Source: Syntrophales bacterium
Lineage (GTDB): Bacteria > Desulfobacterota > Syntrophia > Syntrophales > UBA2210
Assembly (NCBI GenBank): GCA_963666365.2
Contig: CAXXNF010000001.1
Coordinates: forward strand, 1,216,001-1,280,000
DNA length: 64,000 nt
Direction of reading: 5' to 3'
Below, piece after piece: positions 1 through 56,212 of the stretch. The position numbers and the translations under genes are program-made. Position 1 is the stretch's first letter, and every line of letters begins with the position of its first letter. The notes beneath the pieces were generated by a model. It ran no database searches. It was not told the DNA's origin and saw only the letters and a program-made list of their open reading frames with translations.

Positions 1-850
1 GATCCCGCCGCAGTATGCCCCCGATAATTGCGCGGGAAAGGGTGGCCGGCCAGCGGGGATCGAGATGTTCGTTTACGATATGGGCCGTCATCACCATATC
101 GGCCTTCCCCGATCCTATGAGGGCCGCAAAGGGCTCCAGTTCGCGGGCCGACCAGGTGCGGGTCACATCAACGAATCCCCTGTGAGAATCAGCGGTGGAA
201 CTTCCATGCCCGGGAAAATGCTTGATCGCCGAGAGCACCCCTCCGGCGTGGAAGGCGTCGATCATTGCCTCGGCATGGCGGATCACACAGGCGGGATCGG
301 AAGAGAAACTCCGCTCGATCTTTCCGATTATCGGGTTTTCCGGATTGACATTGAGATCGACAACGGGCGCGAAATTCAGATTTATTCCCAGGTGTCGGAG
401 CGTTTGAGCCGTAATTTCGGCAGCCTTTCCTGTCTCCTCGACGTTGTCGCGCCTTCCCAGGCACCCCTCAGAAATAGAGGGCGGAAAGCCGAACCGGTCC
501 TTCAGGCGGCAGACCTTTCCCCCTTCCTGGTCGACAGCCACGAAGAGGGGGGCTGTTGAGGCTTCCTTCAGCGTACGCACCAGTTTTTCCACCTGCGCAG
601 GAGAGGAGATGTTTCTCACGGGGCTTTTTGACGGCACGTCATAATCGAAAAGTACGACGCCGCCCACTCTCCCCGCACGAATATCCTGTACAATGGGACT
701 TTCTTCATCGACTTCACACCCTCGAAATCCCACCATGAGCATCTGGCCGATTTTCCCATCGATGTCCACCCTTTCGGCGAGAACCGGCGATGGGGGAAAA
801 AGGCAGGGCACAAAAATGCCGAGCAGCAAATAAATATATCGTATCGTCAT
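1..850 (-). CDS. Secreted glycoside hydrolase family 3, beta-N-acetylhexosaminidase (NagZ-like); 3' end runs off the window
   Basis: Absent from the ORF track because it has no stop codon inside the window. Manual minus-strand translation from ATG 850 gives MTIRYIYLLLGIFVPCLFPPSPVLA (signal peptide), then ...KIGQMLMVGF...GGVVLF...LFVAVDQEGGKV...KHFPGHGS. These are GH3/NagZ motifs. Confidence 0.9.
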   Translation of the reverse strand, partial: MTIRYIYLLLGIFVPCLFPPSPVLAERVDIDGKIGQMLMVGFRGCEVDEESPIVQDIRAGRVGGVVLFDYDVPSKSPVRNISSPAQVEKLVRTLKEASTAPLFVAVDQEGGKVCRLKDRFGFPPSISEGCLGRRDNVEETGKAAEITAQTLRHLGINLNFAPVVDLNVNPENPIIGKIERSFSSDPACVIRHAEAMIDAFHAGGVLSAIKHFPGHGSSTADSHRGFVDVTRTWSARELEPFAALIGSGKADMVMTAHIVNEHLDPRWPATLSRAIIGGILRRD

Positions 851-930
851 GCACGTGTTCCTGTTCGGTAGATCATGGAAAAGGCATCACATTGTGCGTC
901 ATTTATCGCGCCTGAAGGGAAAAGGATAGG

Positions 931-3234
931 CTATTTTTCCTTCATGACCCAGATGCCATTCCACTCGGCGCCGGTATCACGCTGCTTCAGTGTTTCGCAG
1001 CGCTTGATGTACATTTCCACCAATCCATCACGGCAATTCAGGCAGAGCGCCTCATTGAAGGCATCAATCGCCTTGTTCCAGGTCCCCTTCCGATAATACT
1101 CGAGACCGCTCTTGAACTGGCTCACCGCCTCCATGAGATTGGGAAAGCTTTCGTCGGTATGGTAATCGAGCACTTCATATATCGCCACCGGCTCGCTCTT
1201 CCCCTTGACGACAACCCGGTCGACCTCGCGGACACGATAGGTGCCGCGCAGTTTCTTGTAGGTGTTTTCACTGATGAGTATCTGCGCATGGTACTGCTTG
1301 CAGGCGCTTTCCAGTCGTGACGCCAGGTTTACGCCGTCGCCGATAAGGGTATAATCCATCCGCTTCGGCGATCCGATGTTTCCTGACACTACTGCATCCG
1401 TATTGAGGCCGACGCCTATGCGAACCTCCTTCTTTCCCTGGGAAAGCCGTTCGCGATTCCAGGCATCGAGATGGTTGATCATGGAAATGGCGGCCCGCAC
1501 GGCGCGGTCCTCATCGTCCCCGTGAGAAACAGGAATGCCGAAGGCAGCCATGATGGCATCACCGATAAATTTATCCAGCATACCGCCTTCCTGTTGAATG
1601 CACTCCACCATAATCGTGAAATACTCATTAAGAAGCGACACTGTCCCCTGGGCGCCCAGTTCCTCCGTCAGGTTGGTAAAACTCCGAATATCAGAAAAGA
1701 GAATGGTGGCCGTCTTGCTTGTGCCTCCCAGAATATCCTCGCCCCCCGCCAACAGCTGATCGGCAAGATCGGGATCCATGTAGCGTGACATGGTCGATTT
1801 CATCCGCTTTTCGCTGGTGATATCGTCAAATACGATCATGGAGCCGAGTTTCTTTTTTTCCGCACTCACAAGCGGCAGTACCGTCAGATTTACGGAAATG
1901 TTCTCACCGCCGAAGGCAAGCAGGGCATCCATGGTGACATCGGAGGTTTTACTCTCCTCGACACGGGTCACTTTTTCCAGAATCCAGGCATTGTTGCCGG
2001 CAAAAAACTCATCGGCCTTACGCCCGATAATATCAACCTCATGGACCTTCATGATCTTCATGCCCGCCGCATTGCAGGTGACGATTGCACCCTCTTCATT
2101 GAGGGTTACCACGCCGTTGGTCATGCTTTCGAGGATGCTTTCGCTGTAATTCTTCATATTCTGCACATCGTCGAAGAGCTTCGCGTTTTCGAGAGCGATC
2201 GAAATCTGTGCGGTAAACGCCTTGAGCCGGGCCTCATCTTCCTCAGTAAAGGGGCCGCCGATTTTGTTCAACACCTGGGTCACGCCGATTGTTTTTCCGC
2301 TTTTGTTGACTACCGGCACGCATAGAATTGAACGGGTAAAAAACCCCGTCTGTCTGTCGAATGACGGGTTGAATCGAAGATCGGCATAGGCATGGGGGAT
2401 ATTAACTGTTTTTCCCGAGGTAAAAACAGTCCCCGCAATACCCAGGTGATTGGGAAACCGAATCTCCGTGGCGCCCAACCCTTCACCCACCTTTGAAAAG
2501 AGTTCCTTTTTCTTTTCGTCATTGAGAAAGAGTGTGGACCGGTCCGCCTTGAGCATGCGCGTCGCCTCCGACATAACTTTCTGCAGAATCGCACTGAGAT
2601 CGATTTCCGAAATCACGTCGGCGACAATATCGAAAAACTCCATTTCCTGCAGGCGTGCACGCTGCATCTGCTCCACGAACTGCGTGCTCTGGAGGGTCAC
2701 CGCCGCCTGCGTCGTCATTGCCTCGAGCAATGCAAGATCGTGCGCGGTAAAACGACCCGTTTTTTTATTTAGAGCCTGTGCAACACCGATAATCTCTCCC
2801 TTGGCCGTCTTGATGGGAGCGCAAAGAATCGATCGTGTCACAAAACCGGTTTGTTCGTCGACAGTGCTGTTGAACCGGGGATCGGCATAGGCATTGTGGA
2901 CGATCGTTCCTACGCCGGAGACAAAGACATCACCGGCGACTCCGGAGTTATTGAGAATTCGGATTTCCCGTTTGAATGATCCCTGGGCCACACGAGAGTA
3001 CAGTTCGTCCGTTTCTTTATCATTTAAAAAAATGGTGCCGCGCTCTGCGTCAAGTTCCCGCGTAGTTATCTCAACCAGCGTTTTGAGCATTTCATCGAGG
3101 GTTTCAAAGGCGGAGATCGTTTTCGACACAGTGAGCAGCATCTCCGCCTGATGCAGCTTTATGCCCATCCCCTCCGGCGCCGCGTCGTCCTGGGGACCGG
3201 AAACCGCCACGTTATGCCTGTCAGCCTCTTTCAT
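931..3234 (-). CDS. Class III adenylate cyclase with GAF-GAF-PAS-catalytic architecture (CyaB-like)
   Basis: Two GAF repeats ending LNKK..F...D and LNK..PFTEEDE, a PAS-like segment, and catalytic motifs FSDIRSFT, LDKFIGDA and YTLIGDGVNLASRLE. Confidence 0.92.
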   Translation of the reverse strand: MKEADRHNVAVSGPQDDAAPEGMGIKLHQAEMLLTVSKTISAFETLDEMLKTLVEITTRELDAERGTIFLNDKETDELYSRVAQGSFKREIRILNNSGVAGDVFVSGVGTIVHNAYADPRFNSTVDEQTGFVTRSILCAPIKTAKGEIIGVAQALNKKTGRFTAHDLALLEAMTTQAAVTLQSTQFVEQMQRARLQEMEFFDIVADVISEIDLSAILQKVMSEATRMLKADRSTLFLNDEKKKELFSKVGEGLGATEIRFPNHLGIAGTVFTSGKTVNIPHAYADLRFNPSFDRQTGFFTRSILCVPVVNKSGKTIGVTQVLNKIGGPFTEEDEARLKAFTAQISIALENAKLFDDVQNMKNYSESILESMTNGVVTLNEEGAIVTCNAAGMKIMKVHEVDIIGRKADEFFAGNNAWILEKVTRVEESKTSDVTMDALLAFGGENISVNLTVLPLVSAEKKKLGSMIVFDDITSEKRMKSTMSRYMDPDLADQLLAGGEDILGGTSKTATILFSDIRSFTNLTEELGAQGTVSLLNEYFTIMVECIQQEGGMLDKFIGDAIMAAFGIPVSHGDDEDRAVRAAISMINHLDAWNRERLSQGKKEVRIGVGLNTDAVVSGNIGSPKRMDYTLIGDGVNLASRLESACKQYHAQILISENTYKKLRGTYRVREVDRVVVKGKSEPVAIYEVLDYHTDESFPNLMEAVSQFKSGLEYYRKGTWNKAIDAFNEALCLNCRDGLVEMYIKRCETLKQRDTGAEWNGIWVMKEK

Positions 3235-38053: not shown

Positions 38054-38073
38054 CGAGGAAAGGAGCATTGCTC

Positions 38074-39075
38074 ATGGCCGTATCGTATAAAACGCTGGGA
38101 TTCGTCAATACCCGCCCCATGTTCAAAAGAGCGCTGAAGGGCGGTTTCGCCATTCCGGCGTACAACTTCAACACCATGGAACAGCTTCAGGCAATCGTCA
38201 TCGCCTGCCTCGAAACCCAGTCACCGGTAATTTTACAGGTATCGAAGGGCGCGCGGGAGTATGCCGACGCGACACTTCTTCGCTATCTGGGACAGGGCGC
38301 CGTGGCGATGATGCGGCAGCGGGCGGCCGACAGCGCTGCCGGCGAGATCCCCATGGCGTTGCACCTCGATCACGGCGATTCTTATGAACTCTGCGTTTCC
38401 TGCATAGAACAGGGGTTTTCATCGGTCATGATCGACGGCTCTTTCCTCCCCTATGAAAAAAATATTGCCCTCACCAGAAAAGTCGTCGACTATGCCCGTC
38501 AATTCGATGTCACCGTTGAAGGCGAACTGGGGGTTCTCAAGGGCATTGAAGATGATGTGCAGGCGGAGGAACACGCCTACACCCGCCCCGAAGAGGTGCA
38601 GGATTTTGTCGAACGAACCGGCGTCGATTCCCTGGCGATTTCGATCGGCACATCCCACGGCGCCTATAAATTCACCAAGAAGCAGAATCCATTGCTCCGA
38701 TTGGATATCCTTGAAGAAGTCCAGCGCAAGATCCCCGACTTTCCCATTGTACTTCATGGATCATCATCGATTCCGCAGGACGCCGTCGACACTATCAACC
38801 GCTACGGAGGCTCGCTGAAAGACGCCATCGGGATTCCGGAGGAGCAGCTGCGCGAGGCAGCCCGCTCCTCCGTGTGCAAGATTAACATTGATTCAGACGG
38901 CCGCCTTGTCATGACGGCGGCGATTCGCAAAGTGCTGTCCGCCGCTCCGGAGGAATTCGATCCGCGCAAATATCTCGGACCGGCGCGTGAGGCATTGAAG
39001 AAACTCTACGCCCGGAAGAATATCGCTGTTCTGGGAAGCGCATCGAAGGCTCCCGAGATCATGGCGCTCATCTAA
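38074..39075 (+). CDS. fba: Fructose-1,6-bisphosphate aldolase, class II
   Basis: LHLDHG, GFSSVMIDGS, VEGELG, IGTSHGAYK, VLHGSS, KINIDSD and DPRKY. Confidence 0.96.
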   Translation: MAVSYKTLGFVNTRPMFKRALKGGFAIPAYNFNTMEQLQAIVIACLETQSPVILQVSKGAREYADATLLRYLGQGAVAMMRQRAADSAAGEIPMALHLDHGDSYELCVSCIEQGFSSVMIDGSFLPYEKNIALTRKVVDYARQFDVTVEGELGVLKGIEDDVQAEEHAYTRPEEVQDFVERTGVDSLAISIGTSHGAYKFTKKQNPLLRLDILEEVQRKIPDFPIVLHGSSSIPQDAVDTINRYGGSLKDAIGIPEEQLREAARSSVCKINIDSDGRLVMTAAIRKVLSAAPEEFDPRKYLGPAREALKKLYARKNIAVLGSASKAPEIMALI

Positions 39076-39090
39076 CCGGGGCAGTCGGGG

Positions 39091-39924
39091 CTATTCCCCC
39101 CGCAGGTAGGCGGGAAGGTCTTTTTCTTCCATGCCCTGGAAACTGCAGAGAAGGGGACAGGTCTTGCAGGGCTCCTTCACCGCCCTCAGTGGCGGCTCCC
39201 CTTTTATGCCTTCGATAAAATCGACGCATTCGTTCACGTCCCCGTCGTTGCCGTCGATTATAATGGTCACGGACCCTTCAGCGCCCCCGTATCCCCCCGA
39301 TGCAAAGTGAACGGCGTCCACGTCGAAGAGATCCTCCAGTGCGTCAAGTTCGGTATAGACAATCCCGTCGGCAACGCATACCATGCCCACCCTGGCGCCG
39401 ATGCTCCGTTCGATGGCAAAAATACCGCCCATCCGCGAGGCCTCTTCCACCGATGGTATCATTTTTTCTAGTCCCACGGGGTAGACGATCATGCCCCCCC
39501 GCGCCTGCATTGCCAGATAAAACTCACCCATGGTGCCCCCGACGGGACTTGCCATAAAGACGCCGACCTTCCCCGTGTGATCCATTGCATTGACCCCTTT
39601 GAGAAGAATATCCCCTGGTCCCAGTTTGTCCAGCACCGACGAGGGCTCCACCTCGAGAATTTTACCCTTGTGGAAGGTAACCGGCTGGAGCCGCACCCCC
39701 TGGACCAGCGCGCAGAGGACCCCCCTGATTACCTGGCCGGCGACATATTTTTCCTTTTCAATCGTCTTTTCCAAAAGCTCTTCAGCGATGTAGGCATTGG
39801 TGGACCCGCGCCCCACAATCAGATACCCCTCGTTCATCGCTTCCTGAACTTCGGGCATCGCAGCCACCGCCTTGGCAATAAGTCGTTTTGATTCCGAAGA
39901 CGTCAATGTAAACAGGGCCTGCAT
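39091..39924 (-). CDS. Hypothetical protein (277 aa) with C-terminal CxxCxxxC
   Basis: Long ORF with an AGGAGG RBS and globular composition (LT.SESKRLIAK, GSTNAY, KG.NA, PVGLEK, GGAEGS). No family recognised. Confidence 0.7.
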   Translation of the reverse strand: MQALFTLTSSESKRLIAKAVAAMPEVQEAMNEGYLIVGRGSTNAYIAEELLEKTIEKEKYVAGQVIRGVLCALVQGVRLQPVTFHKGKILEVEPSSVLDKLGPGDILLKGVNAMDHTGKVGVFMASPVGGTMGEFYLAMQARGGMIVYPVGLEKMIPSVEEASRMGGIFAIERSIGARVGMVCVADGIVYTELDALEDLFDVDAVHFASGGYGGAEGSVTIIIDGNDGDVNECVDFIEGIKGEPPLRAVKEPCKTCPLLCSFQGMEEKDLPAYLRGE

Positions 39925-40034
39925 AGCATAACCTCCTTTTCACTGTTGTTGGCGGGACGGACAGTCCCGTCACCCCCGATATTTTCACTGCAGCCGTGTG
40001 GAAAACTCCTGTAGGTCCGGCAGGACAGTAATTA

Positions 40035-40176
40035 TGACGCCACCGTAAAAAGACCCATTCCCCTCCCCCGGGGGGAGGGGATGAAGGGAGGGAAATCTTA
40101 AGCGCTCGTAATAACCTCACCCCAGCACTCTCCTCTCAAGGGAGAAGGTGATATCCGGCTTTTTACAGGATCGTCA
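40035..40176. mobile_element. MITE/REP-like element of about 142 bp with terminal inverted repeats and an ATTA flanking duplication
   Basis: Left end TGACGccaccGTAAAAAG; reverse complement of the right end TGACGatcctGTAAAAAG. ATTA at 40031-34 and 40177-80. Two internal C/G-rich hairpins. Confidence 0.65.
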
Positions 40177-40308
40177 ATTATAACGGATGTCACTATACCA
40201 CCTTTTATTCCCTTTACGCAAAAGACTATCGAAGCACTTGCAATGAAATTCTGAAGAGGGTACAAGGTGGGCAAGCACAGTTCGGTGAAAGGCAGGAGGA
40301 ACGGTTTA

Positions 40309-40929
40309 TTGAGATTGACACTGGTGCGGCACGGACAAACACCATGGAATCGAGAACAGAGGGTGCAGGGAATCAGCGATATATCCCTGAGCAACCGGGG
40401 ACTGGCACAGGCGAACAATCTTGCGCTGGCCTTAAAAAATGAGCGGATTGCAACCATCCTTTCAAGTCCCTTGCGGCGCGCGCTGCAAACCGCCGAGGCA
40501 ATCAACCGTTTTCACGGTCTCGCCATAGAAAGGGATCAGAACCTGATGGAGCTCGACCAGGGGGATTTCGAGGGACAGACCTTCCCGGAAATTATGAAAA
40601 CCCATAAAGCGTTCCTCCAACGCTGGGCTGCCGACCCTGCATCGGTGATCATGCCGAACGGCGAATCACTGGAGCAGCTTCAAAGGAGGGCATGGACTGC
40701 GGTGGAACGCATTCTCGCAACAGAAACACACCACGCGGTCCTCGTCTCGCACAATTTCACCATTATGACCATCCTCTGCAAAATTCAGGACCTGAGCCTT
40801 CGCCATGTCAGGAAGGTCCATGTGGATGTGGCGTCGCGAACGACCGTGCAATTCAAGGAGGGGAGGGGGGAAATCATCCTCTTTAACGATGTGTCACACC
40901 TGAAAGGATCTGAACAGGTTAAGGATTAG
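40309..40929 (+). CDS. Histidine phosphatase family (PhoE/CobC-like)
   Basis: LVRHGQT.WN...QG, SSPL.RA.QTA, E...G.FEG, PNGES and VSH. TTG start after AGGAGG. Confidence 0.9.
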   Translation: MRLTLVRHGQTPWNREQRVQGISDISLSNRGLAQANNLALALKNERIATILSSPLRRALQTAEAINRFHGLAIERDQNLMELDQGDFEGQTFPEIMKTHKAFLQRWAADPASVIMPNGESLEQLQRRAWTAVERILATETHHAVLVSHNFTIMTILCKIQDLSLRHVRKVHVDVASRTTVQFKEGRGEIILFNDVSHLKGSEQVKD

Positions 40930-40944
40930 CCGGTTTGATCAACC

Positions 40945-42165
40945 TCAGAGCATTACCTCCAGCACGGAATCGATGCGTCGAAGGGCGGCGGCAACAGCCG
41001 CCGCCTCTCCCTGAGAAAGACCTTCGACAGTCTCCTCTGATACAAGTTCAACAATTCCATCAAAGGCCTTTCGGACGTTCAAGTCGTTATCCATGGCCTC
41101 GGTGAATACTTCCGTCATCTCGTCGGCAAGGGGAGACAGCTGCGCCTTTTGTAGGGCGGCGCCCTTTTTCGCAAGCTTCCCCATCACCGACCGGAACCGG
41201 CGAAGCAGGCATGCCTTTTCCTTCATGATTGTTTTCGAATAATTGAGGTTCTCCCGATAGTGTCCGTAAATCAGGAAAAAACGAATTTCTTCCGCGCTGA
41301 AACCCTCATCAAGAAGGGTATCAGTGTAATATACATTCCCCAGGCTTTTGGACATTTTTTTCCCCTCCACAAAGAGATGACGGCAATGCATCCAATAGCG
41401 GGCCATGGGATAGGGCCGTATCGATTCAAGAACAGCCATCGTATAGTCATGATGGCGGATAAGATTGTCAACGCCGCCGCAATAAATCGACAGAGGCTCT
41501 TCGATATAATGCCTGAGCACGCTGGCATCCTGAATGTTCCATGAGGGCCTCCCCGGACCGAGAGAACTGTCCCAGCAGACCTCGCCAAGGTCTGCACATC
41601 CGTGCCAGAGTATGAAATCACCCCGGTTCCAACGCATGCCGGGATAGGTGTCTTTGTGGAAACGACGTCTCTTCTTCGGCCATGTGCGCATATCGAGGCC
41701 GTAGAGTGTTCCAAAAAATGGATATTTCAGGGGGTCGAAATAAATATTTTCACGGTGCCGATAGGCAATTCCCCGGGCAAGCAGCTCTTCGATGATCGCA
41801 ACTGCGTCGTCCACCGCTTCGGAAGCCCGTCCCAGATAATCGGGAATTGTCATTTTGAGCAGGTGCATTTCTTTTAAGAAGGTTTCAATATTCATCTCCG
41901 TCAGAAACTTCACATCGGTTCCTCTTTTTTCGGCTTCGGCGATCGCCTTGTCTTCCACGTCGGTAAAGATGATCCCGCGCCGCACCCGGTACCCAAGAAA
42001 ACGAAGGTACCGCACAAGAATATCCTCAAAAAGAAAGGTGCGATGATTCCCTATATGAGCCCGCTGGTACACGGAGGGTCCGCAGGTGAAGATATTGACA
42101 ACATTCGAATTCATCGGGGTGAACTTTTCCATCTTCCGTCCGAAGGTATTGAAGAGTTGAAACAT
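40945..42165 (-). CDS. Cysteinyl-tRNA synthetase paralog (non-canonical, C-terminally short)
   Basis: CGPSVY..AHIGN, TDVEDK, DF.LW, GRPSW, KMSKSLGN and MDNDLN. Key residues are altered (see findings). Confidence 0.85.
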   Translation of the reverse strand: MFQLFNTFGRKMEKFTPMNSNVVNIFTCGPSVYQRAHIGNHRTFLFEDILVRYLRFLGYRVRRGIIFTDVEDKAIAEAEKRGTDVKFLTEMNIETFLKEMHLLKMTIPDYLGRASEAVDDAVAIIEELLARGIAYRHRENIYFDPLKYPFFGTLYGLDMRTWPKKRRRFHKDTYPGMRWNRGDFILWHGCADLGEVCWDSSLGPGRPSWNIQDASVLRHYIEEPLSIYCGGVDNLIRHHDYTMAVLESIRPYPMARYWMHCRHLFVEGKKMSKSLGNVYYTDTLLDEGFSAEEIRFFLIYGHYRENLNYSKTIMKEKACLLRRFRSVMGKLAKKGAALQKAQLSPLADEMTEVFTEAMDNDLNVRKAFDGIVELVSEETVEGLSQGEAAAVAAALRRIDSVLEVML

Positions 42166-42262
42166 TGCACAATCTCCCATCAATTGGTTTCTCTGTTGTA
42201 TCATTACCACTGCAGTTACATAACATCAAGGTCATGAACTCAGCAGGAATCGCACCACGCTC

Positions 42263-42291
42263 TTGACATGACCAAAGGAAAGATGCATTAT
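42263..42291 (+). promoter_or_regulatory. Sigma70-type promoter
   Basis: TTGACA-N17-CATTAT upstream of the DapA-like gene. Confidence 0.55.
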
Positions 42292-42380
42292 TCGTGAGGC
42301 TTACAGGCAGTCGTCACAATGCCGTTCCGACGCCGGGTCCGTGAGCCCGGGCCTATGCTCATAGCTGAAAGGAAAGAACC

Positions 42381-43427
42381 GTGAAAGAAACCGAATCACA
42401 GCGCGGGACCTTGGCGGGTGCGCTTTTCCCCGAAGGCATCCCCCGACTCTGGTGCCCCCTTCTCACGCACTACCGGGAAGACGGAACCATCGATATCGAT
42501 CGCATGATTGCCCACATGCACCAAATTTCCCCCGATGTGGAAGGGTTTCTCATCCCGGGGTCCACCGGTGACGGATGGAGGCTCGATGACGAACAGTCCC
42601 TCATACTGGTCGATTGTGCCGTATCGATGGCCCGCCGCACGGGAAGTCACCTTCTTTTAGGCGTGCTGAGGCCGGATGCCCGAAGCATGACGGCTCTGAT
42701 CGATTCAATGCTGCGTTTCCTCAAGAAAAAAACGGGAATCGAAGCTGACATGGACTGCCTTATCGCTGCTCATGTCAGCGGATTTACCGTCTGCCCCCCC
42801 TCAGGCCGGGGCGACGATCAGGAGGCAATCTATGACGAACTTGCCGCGGTGGCCGATACGGCGCTGCCCCTGGCGCTTTATAACATTCCCTTTATTACGA
42901 AAAGCGAACTGGCGCCGGCCGCATTTCAAAGACTGGTGGCACGCTACTACAATATTTTCCTTTTCAAAGATTCCAGCGGGAAGGACCTGATCGCACATGC
43001 ATCTGTCGATCATGGCGGCGTCTTCCTTTTCAGGGGCGCCGAGGGAAATTACGCCGACGCACTGAAAGATAACGGCGGCGCCTACGACGGACTCCTCCTC
43101 AGCACGGCAAACTGCTTCGCCGGAGAACTTGCCGCGATTATCGACTACGTGGAGCGCGGCGCATTTCCCGCCGCCGCACATCTTTCAGATGCCATTACCC
43201 ATGTCCTGACCGAGGTCAACCGGCTTACGGCGCCCCTTCACAGCGGCAATCTTTTTGCGGCCACCATGAAGGCGATAGACCATTTTTACGCCTTCGGTCC
43301 CGGCGCCGTTCGTAAAAAGGGCCCGCTCCTCTATGGCGGCCTGCGCATACCGGAAGGGGTAATCAGAACTACGGGTGAACTGCTGCGTCAATTCGATCTT
43401 ATGCCGGCGCGGGGATACACCGCCTAA
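42381..43427 (+). CDS. Dihydrodipicolinate synthase / class I aldolase family protein
   Basis: P.LT....G.ID, GSTGDG, LYNIP..T and Schiff-base KDSSG. Confidence 0.82.
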   Translation: MKETESQRGTLAGALFPEGIPRLWCPLLTHYREDGTIDIDRMIAHMHQISPDVEGFLIPGSTGDGWRLDDEQSLILVDCAVSMARRTGSHLLLGVLRPDARSMTALIDSMLRFLKKKTGIEADMDCLIAAHVSGFTVCPPSGRGDDQEAIYDELAAVADTALPLALYNIPFITKSELAPAAFQRLVARYYNIFLFKDSSGKDLIAHASVDHGGVFLFRGAEGNYADALKDNGGAYDGLLLSTANCFAGELAAIIDYVERGAFPAAAHLSDAITHVLTEVNRLTAPLHSGNLFAATMKAIDHFYAFGPGAVRKKGPLLYGGLRIPEGVIRTTGELLRQFDLMPARGYTA

Positions 43428-44707
43428 ATACCGCGGTAGGAACTGCTGGAAAGGCCGAAGAGAAGTACCACCAGCGCAAGGAGAATGCCGCCGCATCCTA
43501 CCGTTGCCGGTGCGCCGAAGGCGTCGGCAAAGAGGCTCATCACCATGTTCCCCAGGGGCAATGCCGAAAAGGTAAGCATATAGACGCTCATGACGCGGCC
43601 ATGATAGCGCCGGTCGGAACGGTCCATAAGGAGGGCGGCGTTCAGCGCCAGATAGGATGAAGACACGATGCCCACGATCACCAGTAGTGCCAGGGCAACA
43701 TAGAAGGAATCACTGAAGGCGAAGAGAGCCACCGTCGCCCCGAAGAGCACCCCAAGAACAAGCTGCACGATCCCGGGACGCTCCAACCTGCGAATCGAAG
43801 CGATCGCGAGAGATCCGATAAGGGCGCCGATGCCGTTTGCCATCATAAGCATGCCCAGTCCGCCGGGACCGACTGAAAATACCTTTTTCGCAAAGACGGG
43901 CATCAATGCTTGAAAGGGCATGCCGAGTATAATGGGGGCAATGCTCAAAACCAGCAGGACCAGCAGAACCGGGTGCCTCCAAATATAGAGTATGCCTTCG
44001 CCCATTGCGCTCCACCCTTTTGTGTCCTCTGCATTCGAAGGAGACCCGCGGTCGGGAATGTACAGAAGCGTCGCTATTACCAGCGCATACATACCAGCCA
44101 TAAGGAGATAGACGCCCCCCACATTCATCCAGGGGCCGCCGATCAGCCACCCCGCAAGAGGGGGACCGATCACCCGGCAGGCATTGAGCCCGGCCCCGTT
44201 TAATGCAACGGCGTTCATCAGCCGCTCACGACTGATTATCTCGGCCACGAAGGATTGACGGGCCGGCATGTGAAAGGTGAAGGCGCTTCCCATGAAAAAG
44301 GAAAGAACCACCATGTGCCATATTCTGATCGCGCCGCATATCACCAGCACAGCCATAATCAACGCGCCGGCGGCAGTGATCCACTGAGAAATCAGGAGAA
44401 TACGCCGCCTTGAATTCCGGTCGGCAACGACTCCCCCAAAAAGAGAAAAGACGAGCATGGGAACCCCGAAGCCCAGTGAGATGAAACCGATCGACGAAGC
44501 TGCCCCCGTCAGTTCAAAGGCAAGGTAGCCGTTGGTGAAGAAATTCATCTGCATGGCCAGAACGCCCGGCAGCATCCCGATCCAGAGTACGCGAAAATCC
44601 CGCTCCTGAAGCGCCGGAAAGGCCCGTAACCAGGACGCCGGAGGCTTTTCTTTCCCACCACTCTCCGCTTCAGCGGCCCGAGACCCCTTCTCGGCTTGAT
44701 TGCCCAT
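43424..44707 (-). CDS. MFS transporter (EntS/DHA3-like)
   Basis: About 12 hydrophobic segments, GGVVADR..RR, PARQ, R..GP..AG and GRVMS. Confidence 0.92.
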   Translation of the reverse strand: MGNQAEKGSRAAEAESGGKEKPPASWLRAFPALQERDFRVLWIGMLPGVLAMQMNFFTNGYLAFELTGAASSIGFISLGFGVPMLVFSLFGGVVADRNSRRRILLISQWITAAGALIMAVLVICGAIRIWHMVVLSFFMGSAFTFHMPARQSFVAEIISRERLMNAVALNGAGLNACRVIGPPLAGWLIGGPWMNVGGVYLLMAGMYALVIATLLYIPDRGSPSNAEDTKGWSAMGEGILYIWRHPVLLVLLVLSIAPIILGMPFQALMPVFAKKVFSVGPGGLGMLMMANGIGALIGSLAIASIRRLERPGIVQLVLGVLFGATVALFAFSDSFYVALALLVIVGIVSSSYLALNAALLMDRSDRRYHGRVMSVYMLTFSALPLGNMVMSLFADAFGAPATVGCGGILLALVVLLFGLSSSSYRGI

Positions 44708-44746
44708 TTCGCTCGTCGTTTCGTCCCCTCAGTTTCTTGTCTGCAC

Positions 44747-49640: not shown

Positions 49641-50948
49641 TTATACGAGATAGAGATCCTCCGCCTGGCGCAGCAGTTCTTCCCTGAAATCGGGGTGCGC
49701 GATGCCGATGATGGCAAGGGCCCGCTCTCTGGTTGACTTCCCCTTAAGGTTGACGGCGCCGTATTCGGTCACCAGATAATGTACATCCATCCGGGGCGTG
49801 GTCACCACCGTTCCCGGCGCGAACCGGGGAACGACACGCGAAACCGCGCCCTTCTCCGCCGTGGAATAGAAGGCGAGCATGGATTTTCCATCTTTGGAAT
49901 TGAAGGCGCCTCTCACAAAATCGAGCTGCCCCCCCGTACCGCTGTACTGCGCTCCGGCCAGAAATTCCGCGTTTGCCTGCCCCAGAAGATCCACTTCCAA
50001 TATGGAGTTGATGGAAATCATGCGGTCGTTTCGTGCAATTACGGACGGGTCATTGGTATAGGAGACGGCATAACTCTCCATACTGGGATTGTTGTCCATA
50101 AATTCATACATGCGGGTGTCCCCCTGGGCTACAGTAAACACGTTTTTCAACGGATGAAGGGTTTTTCTCCGCCCCGTCACCACCCCCTTCTCAATAAGGT
50201 CCACCATGCCGGGAACGAAGAGTTCCGTGTGAATACCCAGATCCTTGTGGTCGGTAAGATAGGCCGTAATCGCATTGGGAATCGCCCCGAAACCAAGCTG
50301 AAGCGTTGCACCATCGGGAACCATCTCGGCGATGATGCCACCTATCGTTTCGGCCTCCGGTTTCGCATCGCCGAGACCCATCTCCAGCAACGGCCGGGTA
50401 TTTTCAATCACGGCATCCACTTCCGAGATGTGAAGAAGGGAGTCGCCGAATACACGGGGCATCCGTTCATTGACCTCAACAATAAGCCGCTCGCAATGAC
50501 GGGCCGCGGTGGAGGTGAAATCATTCGCCGTGCCGAAGCTGAAAAAGCCTGCCTTGTCCATAGGGGATACCGTCGTGACCATGCAGTCAATTTCCATGAA
50601 CTCTCGACAGAGACGGGGAACCTGGTGAAAGTAGTTGGGAATAAAATTATCGAGACCCACCCTCACCATGCCTCTGTCCTGGACGCTGACAAACCAGGTA
50701 TAGGCTTCTATGCAGTCGCTCAGTTCCGGCGCCAGCACCGTCGATGCGGCATGTGCGAGGGGAAGCAAAGAATAGACCTTTATTCCCCTGAGATCGCCGG
50801 CCCGCGCCCGTTCAGCAACTGCCGCAAGCAGAGCGGGCGGTTCGGCGATGCTCAGCCCGTGGACGAGCGTATCTCCGTTTTGTATCGCCGCAACGGCCTT
50901 CTCGGCCGTGGTGAGCTTGCTGCGGTATTCCGCGTAATAGTCTCCCAT
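49641..50948 (-). CDS. Acetyl-CoA hydrolase/CoA-transferase (4-hydroxybutyrate CoA-transferase-like)
   Basis: EVN..MPR, LQLG.G.IPNA, catalytic GIHTE, SG.GGQ.DF, TEYG and IAHPDFR. Confidence 0.93.
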   Translation of the reverse strand: MGDYYAEYRSKLTTAEKAVAAIQNGDTLVHGLSIAEPPALLAAVAERARAGDLRGIKVYSLLPLAHAASTVLAPELSDCIEAYTWFVSVQDRGMVRVGLDNFIPNYFHQVPRLCREFMEIDCMVTTVSPMDKAGFFSFGTANDFTSTAARHCERLIVEVNERMPRVFGDSLLHISEVDAVIENTRPLLEMGLGDAKPEAETIGGIIAEMVPDGATLQLGFGAIPNAITAYLTDHKDLGIHTELFVPGMVDLIEKGVVTGRRKTLHPLKNVFTVAQGDTRMYEFMDNNPSMESYAVSYTNDPSVIARNDRMISINSILEVDLLGQANAEFLAGAQYSGTGGQLDFVRGAFNSKDGKSMLAFYSTAEKGAVSRVVPRFAPGTVVTTPRMDVHYLVTEYGAVNLKGKSTRERALAIIGIAHPDFREELLRQAEDLYLV

Positions 50949-51371
50949 GGGTCGCCTCCTTGTTTACCGCATTATAGTTAATGATTGATTGTCAGGTGTC
51001 AACAAAATAATCTGCGGGAGCTAAGCGCGGCCTACTAGGGCTCTTTTATAAAAAACTTTACAAACAAAATGTGCCAATCCTTTTCAAAGTAGGATGCTTC
51101 AAAGTACAGAAGGCGACACATGGTAAACACGGGGCGAAGCCCAGAAGGAATTGCATTGAGCAAAAAGGGCCTGAACAGTGTGACTCCCATATTCACTCCC
51201 GTTCTATCTCAAAGAGGCTGAGTAATCGCTTCAGTATAATTCCTCTGCCACAGTCATGCGAGGAAGAGACTATATGTTGGAACAAAGTTCTTGACATATC
51301 TGTTTGTTGTTAAGAATATCCCCGATTATTTTACCAGCATTTTATTTGTCGTAAGAAACAAAGGACTTGCA

Positions 51372-52283
51372 ATGATGACAGCTAGAATGAATGAGGACCT
51401 GATTAGAGAGAACAAACAGTTGCAAAGACAGATTAATGAATTAAAATCATTGATTAAATGTCCATTTGACAATGACGAACATAATATTCAGAAACTTCCT
51501 ATAGAATTAATCGCAGAAACAGCTCAAGAGACTATTGTGGTGATACAAGATGAAAGATACATGTATGCCAATAAAAGAGCTGCAGAAATAACTGGTTATT
51601 CGGTTGAAGAAATGTATAGCAAACATCTCAGAGATATAGTGTATCATGAAGATTATGATAAGGTAATATCCAGTAATATTAAAAGGATAAATGGATATAA
51701 AATAAAATACCGGCACAGGATTATTGATAAAAAAGGACAGATGAAGCATCTGGAGAGCTTCGGAATAGGCATCTTATGGGAAGGACAACCAGCAACCTTG
51801 TGTTTTCTAAACGACATAACCGCTCAAATTAATGCAGAAAATGCATTACGCAAAAATTCACAGATACTGGAACAGACAAACACCGCCTTAAACGTATTGT
51901 TGAAACATCGGGAAGAGGATCTAAACGATGTCGAAGAAAAGGTGATAAATAATATCAATAAACTCATTCTTCCATACCTAGAAAAAGTGAAGGCGTTTCC
52001 CTTGAACTCTGATGTTGCCTCTTATATAGATATTATCGAAAGACATGTACATGAAATTACATCTCCTTTTTTGCAAAAGCTGTCCCGACAATTTTTAAAT
52101 CTTACGCCTCGAGAAATTCAAATAGCTTCTTTGATTAGAAGTGGCAAGCCAACCAAAGAAATCAGCACAATAATGAACATTGCAATCAGCACAGTAGATA
52201 ATCACAGAAAAAGCATTCGGAAAAAACTGGGATTAAAATCTAAAAAAGACAATCTTCAATCCTTTCTCATGTCACTTAAGTAA
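51372..52283 (+). CDS. PAS plus LuxR-HTH transcriptional regulator
   Basis: PAS (YAN..A..ITGYS.EE, DIT), NTALNVLL and HTH LTPREIQIA.LI..GK.TKEI.....HR..IRKKLG. Confidence 0.9.
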   Translation: MMTARMNEDLIRENKQLQRQINELKSLIKCPFDNDEHNIQKLPIELIAETAQETIVVIQDERYMYANKRAAEITGYSVEEMYSKHLRDIVYHEDYDKVISSNIKRINGYKIKYRHRIIDKKGQMKHLESFGIGILWEGQPATLCFLNDITAQINAENALRKNSQILEQTNTALNVLLKHREEDLNDVEEKVINNINKLILPYLEKVKAFPLNSDVASYIDIIERHVHEITSPFLQKLSRQFLNLTPREIQIASLIRSGKPTKEISTIMNIAISTVDNHRKSIRKKLGLKSKKDNLQSFLMSLK

Positions 52284-52381
52284 CAGCTATATCATATAGC
52301 TAATATTATACCAATATTGGCTTATTGCCTTTTCTATTCCCATATGCTCATACTCACCGAAACATTACTAGAGGTGAGATT

Positions 52382-54049
52382 ATGGAGTATAGGTCATGGC
52401 ATAAGCATTATGATTTTAACGTCCCTCCATCAATTCGATACCCCCGCATACTCGTGCAAGATCTAATTCAAATCCCGGCAAATACATATCCAGACAAACC
52501 GGCACTTATTTTTGAAGGCCGAGAAATTAATTACTGGGAGCTGAGGCAACAGACACTTCGATTTGCGAATGCATTATCTCGATTGGGAATCAGCAAGGGA
52601 GAGAGGGTCGGGATTCATTTACCTACCTGCCCTCAATATATTATAGCCTATTATGCTGTCCTGTCACTGGGAGCGATCGTTGTTAATTTGAACCCTCTCT
52701 ATACCGTAGAAGAGTTGCAAGGCACAGCACATGCGACGGGAATGTCGTCTCTTATTACTTCGGATATGTCACTTGCCACATCTCGCATTCTTGCCAAATC
52801 GGCTGACATCAGAAAGGTTGTTGTGACCAGGGTTTCCGATTATGCAGGGAATCGAGTACATTCATCAGAATCATCCCTGGAACTCGAACCCGGATGGCAT
52901 TTGTTTGATAAAATCCTTGAAAGCTGCAGCGATACACGAAAGCCTCGCGTGAATGTGAATTCGGGAGATATCGCCGTGATTCAATTTACTGGGGGAACCA
53001 CAGGCATTCCAAAGGGCGCCATGTTAAGTCATGAAAACATTATTGCCGCAACAGTGCAGTACTCTTTCTGGCTATCTTCGCTTTTACAGCTTATCCCACC
53101 GGAACGTCGTTCAGTTCTGGTTATTCTGCCTCTTTATCACGTATATGGGAATCTGGTGATGAATTGGTCTATTTTCAATTGTGCCATGCAGATTCTGGTG
53201 CCCCGATTTCAGATTGACGAACTGATAGATCTGATGGCGGGTTTTAAAGAAATATCCTTTTTCCCAACAGTGGCAACCGTGGTGAGCGCGCTCCTTAACC
53301 ATCCCAAAATCGACCCTTTGAATCTGGGAAAAAAATTAACCTACATCAATTCAGGAGGTGGTCCCACTGCACTGAGTCTGATAGAAAAAATAGAGGATAT
53401 GGGCCTGTATTGCAGCCAAGGGTGGGGCATGAGTGAAACAGCGGCACTTGGCACAAATAACCCTATTTTTGGTCCCAAAAAGGTCAACAGCATTGGAATA
53501 CCTTATCCTGATACAGATATAAGGGTTGTAGACCTGGAAAATGGCGCCGATGATGTCCCCAGGGGCAAACCGGGTGAAATTATAATAAAGGGGGCTACTG
53601 TAATGAAGGGATATTGGAATAACCCTGAAGGTACTGCGGAACAGATGAAAGACGGGTGGCTCTACACGGGAGACATTGCCATTCAGGACGACGACGACTT
53701 CTTATATATAGTGGATCGCAAAAAGGATATGATCATCTCTGGCGGATTCAACATATATCCGAGAGAAGTGGATGAAGCACTATTCCAGCATCCTAAGATC
53801 GAATTTGCTGTTGCCGTGGGGATTCCCGATGATTACCGGGGCGAGACCGTAAAAGCCTTCATTGTCTTAAAAAAGGGAGAAAAGGCCACCGAAAAGGAAA
53901 TTATCACCTTTTGTAAGGAAAAACTTGCTCCCTATAAGGTGCCCAGATTTGTTGAATTTCGAGAATCGCTGCCGCAATCTTCGGTAGGAAAGGTGCTTCG
54001 CAAAGAGCTGAGAGCTGAAGAGGAGGCAAGGTTAAAACGAACAAGATAA
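52382..54049 (+). CDS. Long-chain fatty acid-CoA ligase (FadD-like)
   Basis: FTGGTTGIPKG, GWGMSE, GWLYTGD, DRKKDMI..GG.N.YPRE and VGK.LR. Confidence 0.93.
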   Translation: MEYRSWHKHYDFNVPPSIRYPRILVQDLIQIPANTYPDKPALIFEGREINYWELRQQTLRFANALSRLGISKGERVGIHLPTCPQYIIAYYAVLSLGAIVVNLNPLYTVEELQGTAHATGMSSLITSDMSLATSRILAKSADIRKVVVTRVSDYAGNRVHSSESSLELEPGWHLFDKILESCSDTRKPRVNVNSGDIAVIQFTGGTTGIPKGAMLSHENIIAATVQYSFWLSSLLQLIPPERRSVLVILPLYHVYGNLVMNWSIFNCAMQILVPRFQIDELIDLMAGFKEISFFPTVATVVSALLNHPKIDPLNLGKKLTYINSGGGPTALSLIEKIEDMGLYCSQGWGMSETAALGTNNPIFGPKKVNSIGIPYPDTDIRVVDLENGADDVPRGKPGEIIIKGATVMKGYWNNPEGTAEQMKDGWLYTGDIAIQDDDDFLYIVDRKKDMIISGGFNIYPREVDEALFQHPKIEFAVAVGIPDDYRGETVKAFIVLKKGEKATEKEIITFCKEKLAPYKVPRFVEFRESLPQSSVGKVLRKELRAEEEARLKRTR

Positions 54050-54115
54050 TATTTTCATTATGGTATGAGCATTAAAGCAACAAAGGATGGTTAGCACTAA
54101 CAAAAGGAGGAACAA

Positions 54116-55471
54116 ATGGTAAAAAAAAGATTTGAGTGTTCAAAGAATGTTTTTTGGTCTGTGATGTGTATCTTTCTTCTGATGGGGTTTTTAATTACCG
54201 ATTCGGTGTGGGCTATGCCAAGCTTTGACCCTAGTAAAATGTCTGACATGTCAGATTTTGATCCCAACAATCCAGTTGAGTACTCTGGAGACACTGTCAA
54301 AATAGGACTCATGGACACGTTCTCCGGTCCGGCTGCGGGCACTGGGTATCTCTATTGGTTGACATCGCACTGGGTTGCCCATGATCTCAACAAGAGAGGG
54401 GGCATCATGATTGATGGGAAACTGAAAAAAATACAGATCATCAAAGGCGATACCCAGGCAAAGCCGGCAGTAACAAAGAAAATTGCAGAAAAACTCTGCC
54501 TCATCGACAAGGTTGATGTGTTATGGGGACCGTCAGGGAGTCATCTCGCACTGGTTATGCAGACTGTTGCAAAAAAATACAAAATTATCTATCAGAACCC
54601 CCATAATCAGGCGGATGGCACTATGGATGGGGTAAATTTCAATAGATATACGTTTCGCACCTGTCTGAATTCAAGCATGTTCGGTCTTGCTATGGCCTAC
54701 TATTATTCCAAGCAGCCTGTAACAAAATTTTACATTTTGTGTCAGGATTATTCCTTTGGTCATGAAATGGCAGATCGCTTTAAGAACGGATTGAAAAAGT
54801 ATAAACCGGATGCCGTCATTGTTGGAGAGGAATATCACCCACTCTTTATGAAAGACTTTGCGCCTTACATGACAAAAATCAAAGGAACTGATGCACAGGT
54901 GATTTACACGGGAGACTGGATGCCTGACGGTCCTAATCTGATCCGTCAATCTGTGGAAATGGGTGTCAATTTACCTGTGGCAAATCTTTACTGCGATGTG
55001 CCAGAAGCCTATCAGACCATTGGCGGAGAAGCAGGTCGAGGGCACATAAATGGTAACGATTATATGATCACTGTGGACACACCAGAAAACAAGTTTTTTG
55101 TGAAGCTATGGCATGAGCAGTGGAAGAAATGGGGAAGTCCTTATAATTCTGATCAGTATAAGCACCCTGGTGGCGTACTGGGATCAACATCAAACCAATA
55201 TTACTGGCTCTATAGTGTTATCGAAAGGGCCGGCACAACTGACCCTGAAAAGATCATTCAGGTATGGGAAGATGACGAATACAAAGGATTTACCGGTGTG
55301 ATGAAGATGCGGGCCTGTGATCATCAGGTGGTAAAGGATATGTTTGTCACTGAATTCGAATATCCCAATCCATGGTTTGAGAATGCTGCCTTTTACGGCA
55401 AAACTATGGTGATTCCCTCTGAGTATTGTACCCCTCCAGTTCCGCAGGATCTTGACCGGTGCAATAAGTAA
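54116..55471 (+). CDS. ABC transporter substrate-binding protein (LivJ/K-like), orphan; paralog of 28854-30215
   Basis: Shares DT.K.GL.D.FSGPAAG.G, KLCL.DKVD, FNRYTFR, QDYSFGH and HPLF.KDFAPY with the first copy. Confidence 0.9.
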   Translation: MVKKRFECSKNVFWSVMCIFLLMGFLITDSVWAMPSFDPSKMSDMSDFDPNNPVEYSGDTVKIGLMDTFSGPAAGTGYLYWLTSHWVAHDLNKRGGIMIDGKLKKIQIIKGDTQAKPAVTKKIAEKLCLIDKVDVLWGPSGSHLALVMQTVAKKYKIIYQNPHNQADGTMDGVNFNRYTFRTCLNSSMFGLAMAYYYSKQPVTKFYILCQDYSFGHEMADRFKNGLKKYKPDAVIVGEEYHPLFMKDFAPYMTKIKGTDAQVIYTGDWMPDGPNLIRQSVEMGVNLPVANLYCDVPEAYQTIGGEAGRGHINGNDYMITVDTPENKFFVKLWHEQWKKWGSPYNSDQYKHPGGVLGSTSNQYYWLYSVIERAGTTDPEKIIQVWEDDEYKGFTGVMKMRACDHQVVKDMFVTEFEYPNPWFENAAFYGKTMVIPSEYCTPPVPQDLDRCNK

Positions 55472-55573
55472 TCACTGGAGGAAAAAGTTTCCTTGCTACT
55501 TGTCCTGTTCGGATGTCTTCATTCTGACAGAACCGAACAGGACAGCCTTCTTCTCTGTCATTGCTCATTCCCA

Positions 55574-55948
55574 CTACGCCGCCTTCGGCAGATGCGGTTC
55601 TCGCCACGAATCGGGAGTCAGCGGCGCCATTCCCCAGGCGGCGCGGGCCTTGTCACAGCGAGGATTGTGCAGGCCGTTCTCCCAGGATGGGGAAAAGGAA
55701 CGGCAGATTGATGACCTGGAAGGATAGATGCTGCAGTAGACCGCAGACCCGATGGTCCCTTGAAGGGCGACACAACGGGGATTCGCACCCCGTGTCCCCC
55801 TCATAAGAACGCGAAACTCATCCATTTTCTCCGTAAGAGCCACGGGAACGCCGCCGGCGGTCCCCTCTTCGGTTTCAGCCCAGTAGAAGGATGCCCGGTA
55901 AAAGGCGCAGCAGGCGCCGCAGGTAAGGCAGGGGTTGACAATCTCCAT
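55574..55948 (-). CDS. YkgJ-family cysteine-cluster protein
   Basis: CLTCGACC...RC.AL....CSIY..R...CR.F...RC..AR. Confidence 0.88.
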   Translation of the reverse strand: MEIVNPCLTCGACCAFYRASFYWAETEEGTAGGVPVALTEKMDEFRVLMRGTRGANPRCVALQGTIGSAVYCSIYPSRSSICRSFSPSWENGLHNPRCDKARAAWGMAPLTPDSWREPHLPKAA

Positions 55949-56212
55949 ATAAAAGCCGCTCCTTCAGGACCGATGGTGAAAATCGCGCAGACTATACTCT
56001 TCTTTTTACAATTCACAAGCATTATTTTTATGATGCCGCCTTCGGGAACCCCCATGGTAACTCACTTCTTAACTGTAAAAATATAGTTGTGGTTTTCTCC
56101 TTCGGTTTCTGCTACAAAGCACCGCTTATATCTTGAAGGCATCTCAAGATAAAATGAAACACAGACATTGAATGCAGGTGCCGCAGAAGGCACTACTTTA
56201 TAAAGGTACACT

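Follow-up and report, generated by a model that had tools for sequence, protein, structure and literature searches.

The gene examined here lies in a window of 64,000 nucleotides (nt) from the genome of a Syntrophales bacterium (GCA_963666365.2, contig CAXXNF010000001.1, 1,216,001-1,280,000); the window is the whole stretch of DNA that was analysed, and all positions below are counted within it. The gene encodes a protein resembling cysteinyl-tRNA synthetase (CysRS), called the paralog in the following, which is built of a catalytic Rossmann fold, a connective peptide (CP) insertion, a stem-contact fold and a helical bundle, without an anticodon-binding domain. The gene and the parts of its product that matter for the argument are these:

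40945..42165, minus strand: CysRS-like paralog gene, 406 amino acids (aa) plus stop, with coding part 40948..42165, stop codon 40945..40947 and an intact frame.
42173..42178, minus strand: Shine-Dalgarno-like GGGAGA, read from the sequence, 7 nt 5' of the ATG at 42165.
42067..42084, minus strand: C28-G-P-S-V-Y33, with the first metal ligand Cys28, the alpha-amino contacts Gly29 and Ser31 and the flipping Tyr33, as assigned by alignment with the tRNA-independent ligase MshC.
42046..42057, minus strand: HIGN, the HIGH-type ATP motif, residues 37-40.
41614..41682, minus strand: remodelled basic loop W162-PKKRRRFHKDTYPGMRWNRGD-F184 of the CP insertion, the region that reads the acceptor stem in canonical CysRS.
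41527..41541, minus strand: W209-N-I-Q-D213, canonically W-H-I-E-C, in which the second zinc cysteine has become Asp.
41440..41457, minus strand: R237-H-H-D-Y-T242, canonically P-H-H-E-N-E, with His238 as third metal ligand by alignment and Tyr-Ser/Thr as in the HHEYS of MshC.
41344..41358, minus strand: KMSKS loop, residues 270-274.

A longer start in the same frame is offered by a GTG at 42210, though the ATG at 42165 was taken as the start because homologues start there.

The catalytic domain of the paralog was recognised by the Pfam model tRNA-synt_1e (class I (C) catalytic domain; 232.5 bits, residues 15-316), while the equivalog models for cysS (TIGR00435) and MshC (TIGR03447) both matched below their curated cut-offs, with 297.8 bits against 340 and 179.1 bits against 485.1, respectively. 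The TIGR00435 match stops at model position 401-407 of 466, and in alignment the paralog is approximately 90 residues shorter at its C-terminus than the CysRS of its own genome, which bears out the loss of the anticodon-binding tail proposed in an earlier, sequence-only reading of this DNA. The strings quoted in that reading were all recovered in the translation (TCGP at 27-30, HIGN at 37-40, GRPSWNIQD at 205-213, DNLIRHHDYT at 233-242, KMSKS at 270-274, MDNDLN and the terminal IDSVLEVML), and its statement that the ATP motifs HIGN and KMSKS and the first cysteine are kept holds as well, Cys28 pairing with Cys28 of the E. coli CysRS in the alignment with 1li5. An AlphaFold2 model computed with 20 relatives as input reached a pLDDT of 85.5 and a pTM of 0.88, with low confidence around residues 160-180 and a pLDDT below 50 for the loop residues 165-173. 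With this model as query, the top Foldseek matches were CysRS structures (3tqo, 8qhp and 1u0b), MshC (8hfn) appearing at rank 10, and a search of the ESM Atlas returned generic CysRS and MshC clusters only. The gene would encode a class I adenylate-forming ligase of a hitherto undescribed, CysRS-derived family.

The extent of this family was assessed by protein, genome and metagenome searches. A word-indexed protein search gave 6556 proteins at E <= 0.001 among 8000 candidates, of which the best 120 are all approximately 405 aa long and 58-98% identical to the paralog; family members carry the NCBI name 'class I tRNA ligase family protein'. In a scan of one genome per species, 414 of the 429 matched stretches encode a relative, and the best 80 loci stem from Syntrophales, other Thermodesulfobacteriota, Thermodesulfovibrionales, other Nitrospirota, Dissulfurispiraceae and one Chloroflexota genome. 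A second scan, of metagenomes and with a more distant set as its result, yielded relatives in 525 of 599 matched stretches, and in eight of these more distant members aligned to the paralog both W-N-x-Q-D and RHHDY are invariant. As a side observation, matches to the paralog were also seen on 630 records of a plasmid collection, 503 of them from Klebsiella; nearly all of those listed are annotated as cysS, and the matches listed are approximately 33% identical to the paralog.

For a closer comparison, the paralog, 73 sequences from the loci and 120 from the protein search were pooled, giving 194 sequences (190 distinct) with a modal length of 405 aa. CGPS, Tyr33, H-x-G-N, Thr68, W-x-x-Q-D and RHHDY are invariant in all 194, HIGN itself being present in 181. 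The W-x-x-Q-D motif occurs as WNIQD (146), WNVQD (41) or WSIQD (7), and the residue following RHHDY is T in 124 sequences, S in 56, N in 12 and I and L in one each, while KMSKS is found in 185, the remaining sequences differing from it by single changes. This invariance holds across family sequences that share 54-70% identity. Simple decay of the gene, which the sequence-only reading had named as one of the outcomes that would undo its proposal, was not what was found, since the substitutions are strictly conserved, WxxQD and RHHDY each in 194 of 194 sequences. A decaying or non-catalytic cysS relic is in fact barely credible, even though the paralog scores below the cysS cut-off and one long-branch relative (P0198) carries the degenerate motifs TSGP, HLGQ and RMTAR, as the frame is intact and preceded by a ribosome-binding site, and the catalytic and family motifs are invariant across several phyla. 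Judged by these comparisons, the family is intact and under selection.

A FastTree phylogeny of 138 rows, comprising representatives at 50% identity of at least 390 aa and six family members (shorter rows having been dropped), placed the WN(I/V)QD sequences in a single clade with 99% local support and a long stem, in which one probably frameshifted and one degenerate long-branch member are also included. The clade joins, weakly (support 68), four short CysRS-like proteins, three of them from DPANN archaea. Elsewhere in the tree, a separate CysRS clade with the motifs WHIED and HHEAE likewise has Asp in place of the second zinc cysteine; it contains the full-length P0189, P0193, P0229 and P0146 and the short P0269 and P0194, so that the anticodon domain is retained in part of this clade; of its short forms, P0269 comes from Bathyarchaeia. 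Should a member of the WHIED/HHEAE clade prove to be the only CysRS of its genome, Asp at the second-cysteine site would be compatible with cysteine charging.

Within the phylum, the family is carried by 7 of 301 sampled genomes, that of the paralog included, with one carrier among eight other genomes of the same order and none in the one other genome of the same family, and it is therefore a patchy accessory gene. The source genome itself (4.0 Mb, 94% complete) holds three CysRS-like genes in the TIGR00435 search, with 566.5, 388.9 and 299.3 bits, the last being the paralog (cut-off 340). The presumption that it is a paralog and not the sole cysS was thereby confirmed, the gene with 566.5 bits being a canonical cysS, and a canonical cysS of 555-578 bits co-occurs in all five other carrier genomes checked, thus in six of six with the source genome. 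From this gene content, the paralog is best described as an accessory enzyme and not as the translational CysRS of the cell.

The third CysRS-like gene of the genome is of a different kind. At this locus (L002, G000:C2:1972750-1977135), the open reading frames (ORFs) 587..1102 and 1099..2895 encode a cysteine-synthase-like PALP domain and a full-length CysRS with the motifs HIGT, WHLEC, PHCENV and KMSRS. The PALP domain is spread over two frames (Pfam positions 2-147 and 160-295), which implies a frameshift or a sequencing error, and PALP-CysRS fusions occur as intact frames of 816 and 773 aa in two other genomes. A search for longer forms of the paralog yielded three proteins of 760-768 aa, all of which are PALP-CysRS fusions with a canonical pocket.

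The differences between the family and canonical CysRS were mapped against 107 full-length canonical sequences, in which 82 positions are conserved at a threshold of at least 85%. The family retains 56 of these, and the changes are grouped in the pocket, the CP region and the DIH motif. In the pocket, His210 is changed to Asn, Glu212 to Gln, Cys213 to Asp, Pro237 to Arg, Asn241 to Tyr and Glu242 to Thr or Ser, the position of the second zinc cysteine being Cys in 107 of 107 canonical sequences and Asp in 194 of 194 family members. The DIH motif reads SIY, through Asp226 to Ser and His228 to Tyr, and in the CP region Tyr151 (Tyr in 107 of 107 canonical sequences) has become Phe and Lys188 has become His. 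Relative to E. coli CysRS (1li5), the replacements reported in the sequence-only reading were found as described, with WHIEC changed to WNIQD (Cys209 to Asp) and HHENE to HHDYT (Glu238 to Thr). The E. coli zinc ligands Cys28/Cys209/His234/Glu238 thus correspond to Cys, Asp, His and Thr in the paralog, and the canonical set is not retained. The conclusion drawn there, that two zinc ligands are changed, stands as far as the residues do differ, but the loss of Glu238 is not telling: MshC, which binds zinc and cysteine, has Ser at this position and Tyr at that of Asn237 (HHEYS), resembling the HHDY followed by T, S or N of the family, in which the Glu238 equivalent is Thr, Ser or Asn in 192 of 194 sequences.

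The structure of MshC provides a more suitable template for the pocket. According to the published account (PMC9736012), its zinc is held by Cys43, Cys231 and His256 together with the ligand thiol, that is, by three protein ligands, while the alpha-amino group is bound by Thr46, Thr83 and the carbonyl of Gly44, and Tyr48 flips in over the adenylate. In the alignment with MshC 8hfm, the zinc-ligand positions correspond to Cys28, Asp213 and His238 of the paralog, two of the three being identical, the alpha-amino contacts to Gly29, Ser31 and Thr68, and the flipping tyrosine to Tyr33; all seven positions are invariant in the 194 sequences. Because MshC likewise does without the Glu238 ligand and relies on three protein ligands, the change from Cys to Asp is the sole change at a ligand position that is unique to the family. 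Asp can bind zinc and is a common ligand of this metal, and the Cys28/Asp213/His238 site probably still holds a metal. Since such a triad could do so and the alpha-amino contacts are kept, cysteine stays the leading substrate candidate.

The proposal that the altered pocket serves another amino acid was consequently not borne out by the comparison with MshC, with its alpha-amino contacts kept as Gly29, Ser31 and Thr68. Candidate substrates of such an enzyme include serine, threonine, 2,3-diaminopropionate and three-carbon amino acids in oxidised or phosphorylated form, which would be activated at a lost or repurposed metal site and passed to a small-molecule acceptor. The Asp that occupies the Cys209 position in all 194 sequences and the family-invariant or nearly invariant exchanges of His for Asn210, Glu for Gln212 and Pro for Arg237 would suit this idea, since an oxyanion or polar side chain could be held by the Arg, Asn, Gln and Tyr that the family has gained. 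We nevertheless judge it unlikely, as Cys28 and His238 are invariant and, with Asp, leave three ligands as in MshC, Trp209 is kept, and there is no neighbour context that points to another amino acid. Trp209 aligns with Trp205 of E. coli CysRS, which packs against the substrate.

The second region of change is the CP loop. Its sequence, W162-PKKRRRFHKDTYPGMRWNRGD-F184, is strongly basic and strongly conserved, and the positions W162, P163, F169, T173, G176, W179 and G182 are invariant in the family and rare or absent in the 107 canonical CysRS. A Pro-Gly insert at 175-176, which falls in a gap in 103 of the 107 canonical sequences, is present in MshC. Further states held in common with MshC (as represented by the single sequence 8hfm) are Phe151, a non-His residue at 228 (Gln in MshC), Tyr241, Ser242 and a non-Gln residue at 245, so that the suggestion of MshC as a precedent was supported at several of the altered positions. 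The low confidence of the structural model in the loop would fit a segment that takes on order upon binding a partner. With the loop rebuilt and basic, the anticodon domain lost and canonical invariants lost that MshC has lost as well, a change of acceptor is suggested, and because the rebuilt loop is so strongly basic an anionic acceptor is the probable kind.

An acceptor other than tRNA is, however, not the only way to read these changes. The paralog could instead charge tRNA, as a specialised CysRS that has dispensed with the anticodon domain in the manner of CysRS* or of the short CysRS proteins found in DPANN archaea. In a variant of this explanation it could serve as a backup that tolerates oxidation, with Asp standing in for the oxidisable zinc cysteine, and be induced together with stress genes for the supply of Cys-tRNA. 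In the report on CysRS* (Mukai et al. 2017, PMC5389517), that enzyme is described as lacking the anticodon domain and having an altered CP1 motif, and an engineered mimic of CysRS*, not CysRS* itself, supported opal suppression. Moreover, the short DPANN proteins, which have a canonical pocket, are those that group with the clade, if weakly (support 68), the stem-contact fold and helical bundle are kept, the basic loop could bind RNA, and the stress-operon context described below would suit a backup enzyme too. Against this, canonical invariants outside the pocket are altered at Tyr26, Tyr151, Lys188, Asp226, His228 and Gln245, of which 151, 228 and 245 are non-canonical in the tRNA-independent MshC too, the loop that reads the acceptor stem is entirely rebuilt, and neither a dedicated tRNA nor a link to selenocysteine was found. 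Taken together, we consider tRNA charging rather unlikely.

The searches for such a tRNA were made with ARAGORN, which finds no adjacent tRNA gene in the window or in 60 related loci. The sole tRNA gene in the window is a tRNA-Val at 13508, and only 4 of the 60 loci hold any tRNA gene, none of them for Cys, Sec or an unusual tRNA. In the whole genome, 48 tRNA genes were called, with one tRNA-Cys(GCA) and one tRNA-Sec. Rfam models matched none of 8 loci at their gathering scores, and in window positions 38000-46000 the single match was at chance level. The ARAGORN run on the whole genome also called a tRNA-His with anticodon ATG next to the normal GTG one and no tRNA-Val(GAC). A role connected with selenocysteine was rejected, as the carrier genome G215 (100% complete) has no selA; with selA present in 279 of the 301 genomes of the phylum, its co-occurrence with the family is uninformative.

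The genes surrounding the paralog and its relatives were compared next. The target ORF was called in the window and in 73 of the 80 genome loci (7 without a call), 74 in all; the ORF caller followed a simple rule and took the longest frame, so that some of the frames are too long at their start. Of the 72 loci with an ORF upstream of the target, 39 have a MatE-family transporter gene directly preceding it in the same orientation, at distances of -25 to 242 bp, and the pair of MATE and paralog is found in several phyla. These partner transporters score 161-176 bits with PF01554 and 210-243 bits with TIGR00797, the next-best models being EmmdR/YeeO or SolL. In the closest relative (L006), the order is a DapA-like gene on the opposite strand, MATE and target, while in the window the DapA-like gene is followed directly by the target. 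A link to the flanking DapA-like aldolase, histidine phosphatase and MFS transporter, which had been left open as a possibility, found no support, since these genes recur only in this closest relative (2 of 74 loci, counting the window). The same place two genes away from the paralog is occupied, in the window (39091..39924, minus strand) and in L006, by a 277-aa ORF without a Pfam or NCBIfam match (cluster 67). Further along, window positions 50001..56000 have a G+C content of 0.43-0.47, compared with 0.52-0.59 in the rest of the window, and could be foreign DNA.

Other neighbours at the genome loci vary, with oxidative-stress genes recurring among them. When hidden Markov models (HMMs) built from the neighbour clusters were used for counting, and the farther genes of the same loci were scanned likewise as a control, thioredoxin, Fe/Mn superoxide dismutase (SOD), rubrerythrin and AhpC were found 19 times among 393 genes at most three positions away from the target, compared with 4 times among 444 genes farther away. 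Six further members from the phylum sample were also examined for their neighbours. In one of these (L088), the order is baeRF, MATE and target, in another (L090) a UDP-glucose dehydrogenase overlaps the target, and in a third (L092:7623-9236, genome G237) the target is fused to an N-terminal DUF488 domain, giving 538 aa, and stands behind a transketolase-like gene and two Pyr_redox_2 genes. No function for DUF488 was found in the literature consulted. A fourth (L093) has a convergent disulfide-reductase-type flavoprotein gene and an MFS gene beside the target, and reductases of the Pyr_redox_2/dimerisation type adjoin the target in L092, L093 and L159. At L088:10807-12024 (genome G215), the baeRF gene just mentioned is a bacterial eRF1-like gene of baeRF family 3/7, upstream of the MATE-paralog pair and on the same strand.

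The metagenome set, consisting of 80 more distant loci with the target ORF called in 71 (9 without a call) and neighbours in 65, repeats the stress-gene theme independently. AhpC/TSA lies immediately upstream on the same strand in 8 of the 65 loci, and SOD and an OsmC fusion are immediate upstream neighbours in 2 each. Immediately downstream, 13 loci have a DinB-type polymerase, at distances of -29 to 18 bp in 12 cases. Thioredoxin (3), TrxR-like reductase (3), ferritin-like (4) and nitroreductase (3) genes are found nearby. MATE was seen in none of the 65 loci, and at some of the metagenome loci archaeal-type genes are present (tRNA-intron endonuclease, archease and DUF2153).

A location among stress genes could also be understood if the paralog were a dedicated synthase of an Ap4A-type dinucleoside polyphosphate alarmone, in which a second nucleotide, bound on the basic loop, attacks the aminoacyl adenylate. 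Many aminoacyl-tRNA synthetases make Ap4A as a side reaction, and in the paralog the adenylation motifs are intact, the tRNA-reading parts are lost and the KKRRRFHK stretch of the loop suits a polyphosphate. The idea is purely inferential, however, Nudix or ApaH-type hydrolases were not seen among the neighbours surveyed, and the conserved change of the side-chain pocket would be left unexplained; we therefore regard it as decidedly improbable.

No match to gshA, gshB or bshC was found in the genome (94% complete), and a bacillithiol-like route was not supported, the best BshA match reaching 124.5 bits against a cut-off of 273.7. For mycothiol, the best match to MshD has 29.2 bits against a cut-off of 163.1, MshA and MshB having not been searched. 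The single PIG-L deacetylase of the genome apparently belongs to a polysaccharide cluster, judging by ORF order and N-terminal sequence only.

Based on the pocket, the loop and the neighbourhood, the paralog may be an active ligase of the MshC type that is independent of tRNA, uses cysteine or a close analogue and has its role in stress defence, a reading that we hold tentatively, as plausible but somewhat short of probable. ATP would be bound via HIGN and KMSKS, as the conservation of these motifs suggests, and an L-alpha-amino acid, the likeliest being cysteine or a close thiol analogue, would be held in the CysRS/MshC pose by Gly29, Ser31 and Thr68, with its side chain directed toward Cys28/Asp213/His238. 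Following formation of the aminoacyl adenylate, the aminoacyl group would be passed, as in MshC, to an acceptor other than tRNA-Cys that is bound by the basic CP loop. The product, perhaps a protective thiol or conjugate, would serve in the defence against oxidative or electrophile stress, and the co-transcribed MATE of many lineages would handle or export it.

Several observations weigh against an MshC-like ligase. The paralog matches the CysRS model better (297.8 bits) than the MshC model (179.1 bits), the comparison with MshC was made with one MshC sequence, and Asp in place of Cys, together with Asn210/Gln212 and the Arg gained at 237, could point to another side chain. CysRS forms without an anticodon domain that charge tRNA have been reported or proposed, as in the account of CysRS* (PMC5389517). 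Furthermore, no acceptor-making enzyme is consistently linked at the loci surveyed, the copy in the window has neither MATE nor stress genes beside it, and the best match to the partner MATE in the genome is only 29% identical. Finally, the stress-gene neighbours in the genome set stem from roughly four synteny blocks, and the stress families were chosen for counting after being noticed near the gene; because of these two points the enrichment is only suggestive.

A more far-reaching possibility, which is speculative and in our estimate on the unlikely side, is that strict anaerobes and some archaea make an undiscovered low-molecular-weight thiol or thiol conjugate whose cysteine ligase is this family, a functional counterpart of MshC and BshC. 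It would use an anionic acceptor on its basic loop, and its gene would be expressed together with those for peroxiredoxin, SOD, rubrerythrin, disulfide reductases, DinB and MATE. The neighbours tie the family to oxidative or damage stress, and in the source genome the searches for glutathione, bacillithiol and mycothiol genes (gshA, gshB, bshC and MshD) found none. The identity of the protective small thiols of strict anaerobes and of many archaea is an open question, on which the family would offer a direct handle. It would also show how far the zinc-based cysteine filter of CysRS can change under selection.

Among known systems, canonical CysRS of the H-I-G-N type (TIGR00435; 8qhp, 1li5/1u0b and 3sp1) is the best match of the paralog in both sequence and fold, with 215.6 bits to 8qhp and 30% identity in Foldseek. 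It differs from the paralog by WHIEC in place of WNIQD, PHHENE in place of RHHDYT, DIH in place of SIY, an acceptor-stem loop that has not been rebuilt and the presence of the anticodon domain, and the paralog falls below its cut-off. CysRS paralogs regulated by Zur keep the zinc residues and cluster with zur, znuABC or COG0523 genes (Haas 2009, PMC2770081), and a zinc-starvation paralog of this type was ruled out here, the second zinc cysteine being Asp; COG0523 or znu neighbours were not seen at the loci surveyed, and CDF or ZIP transporters occur in only a few of them.

CysRS*, as described in its report (PMC5389517), is an extra cysS copy of some Desulfobacterales, without the anticodon domain and with an altered CP1 motif, and it thereby resembles the paralog, likewise an additional copy in related bacteria with these two features. 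According to the same report, CysRS* sits downstream of selC*/selB* and pairs with tRNA-Cys(UCA), whereas the paralog has no adjacent tRNA gene and no SelB-like gene is among the neighbours surveyed around the paralog loci; on this description the two are set apart.

MshC, the L-cysteine:GlcN-Ins ligase of mycothiol synthesis (TIGR03447; PDB 3c8z and 8hfm), resembles the paralog in its size of approximately 410 aa, in consisting of the CysRS core and helical domains without an anticodon-binding domain, and in having a HIGH-type motif, KMSKS, HH-acid-Tyr-Ser/Thr, Phe at the canonical Tyr151, a lost DIH histidine and the Pro-Gly insert in the CP region. The two also agree in the alpha-amino contacts (Gly, Thr/Ser and Thr) and in the flipping Tyr, and the Foldseek TM-score of MshC to the paralog is 0.80-0.82. 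Unlike the paralog with its Asp, MshC has Cys231 as second zinc ligand, and its CP loop is an acidic AERGGDPDRPG of equal length where the paralog has the basic KKRRRFHK. The host range differs as well, the family being found in anaerobic Thermodesulfobacteriota, Nitrospirota, one Chloroflexota genome and probably archaea, and not in Actinomycetota. In a 2022 review (PMC9437257), two CysRS relatives with a function outside ordinary translation are named, MshC and CysRS*, and no description of the family of the paralog was found in the literature searched. Conserved across phyla, and with both the metal pocket and the acceptor site rebuilt, it would be a third CysRS-derived family beside these two.

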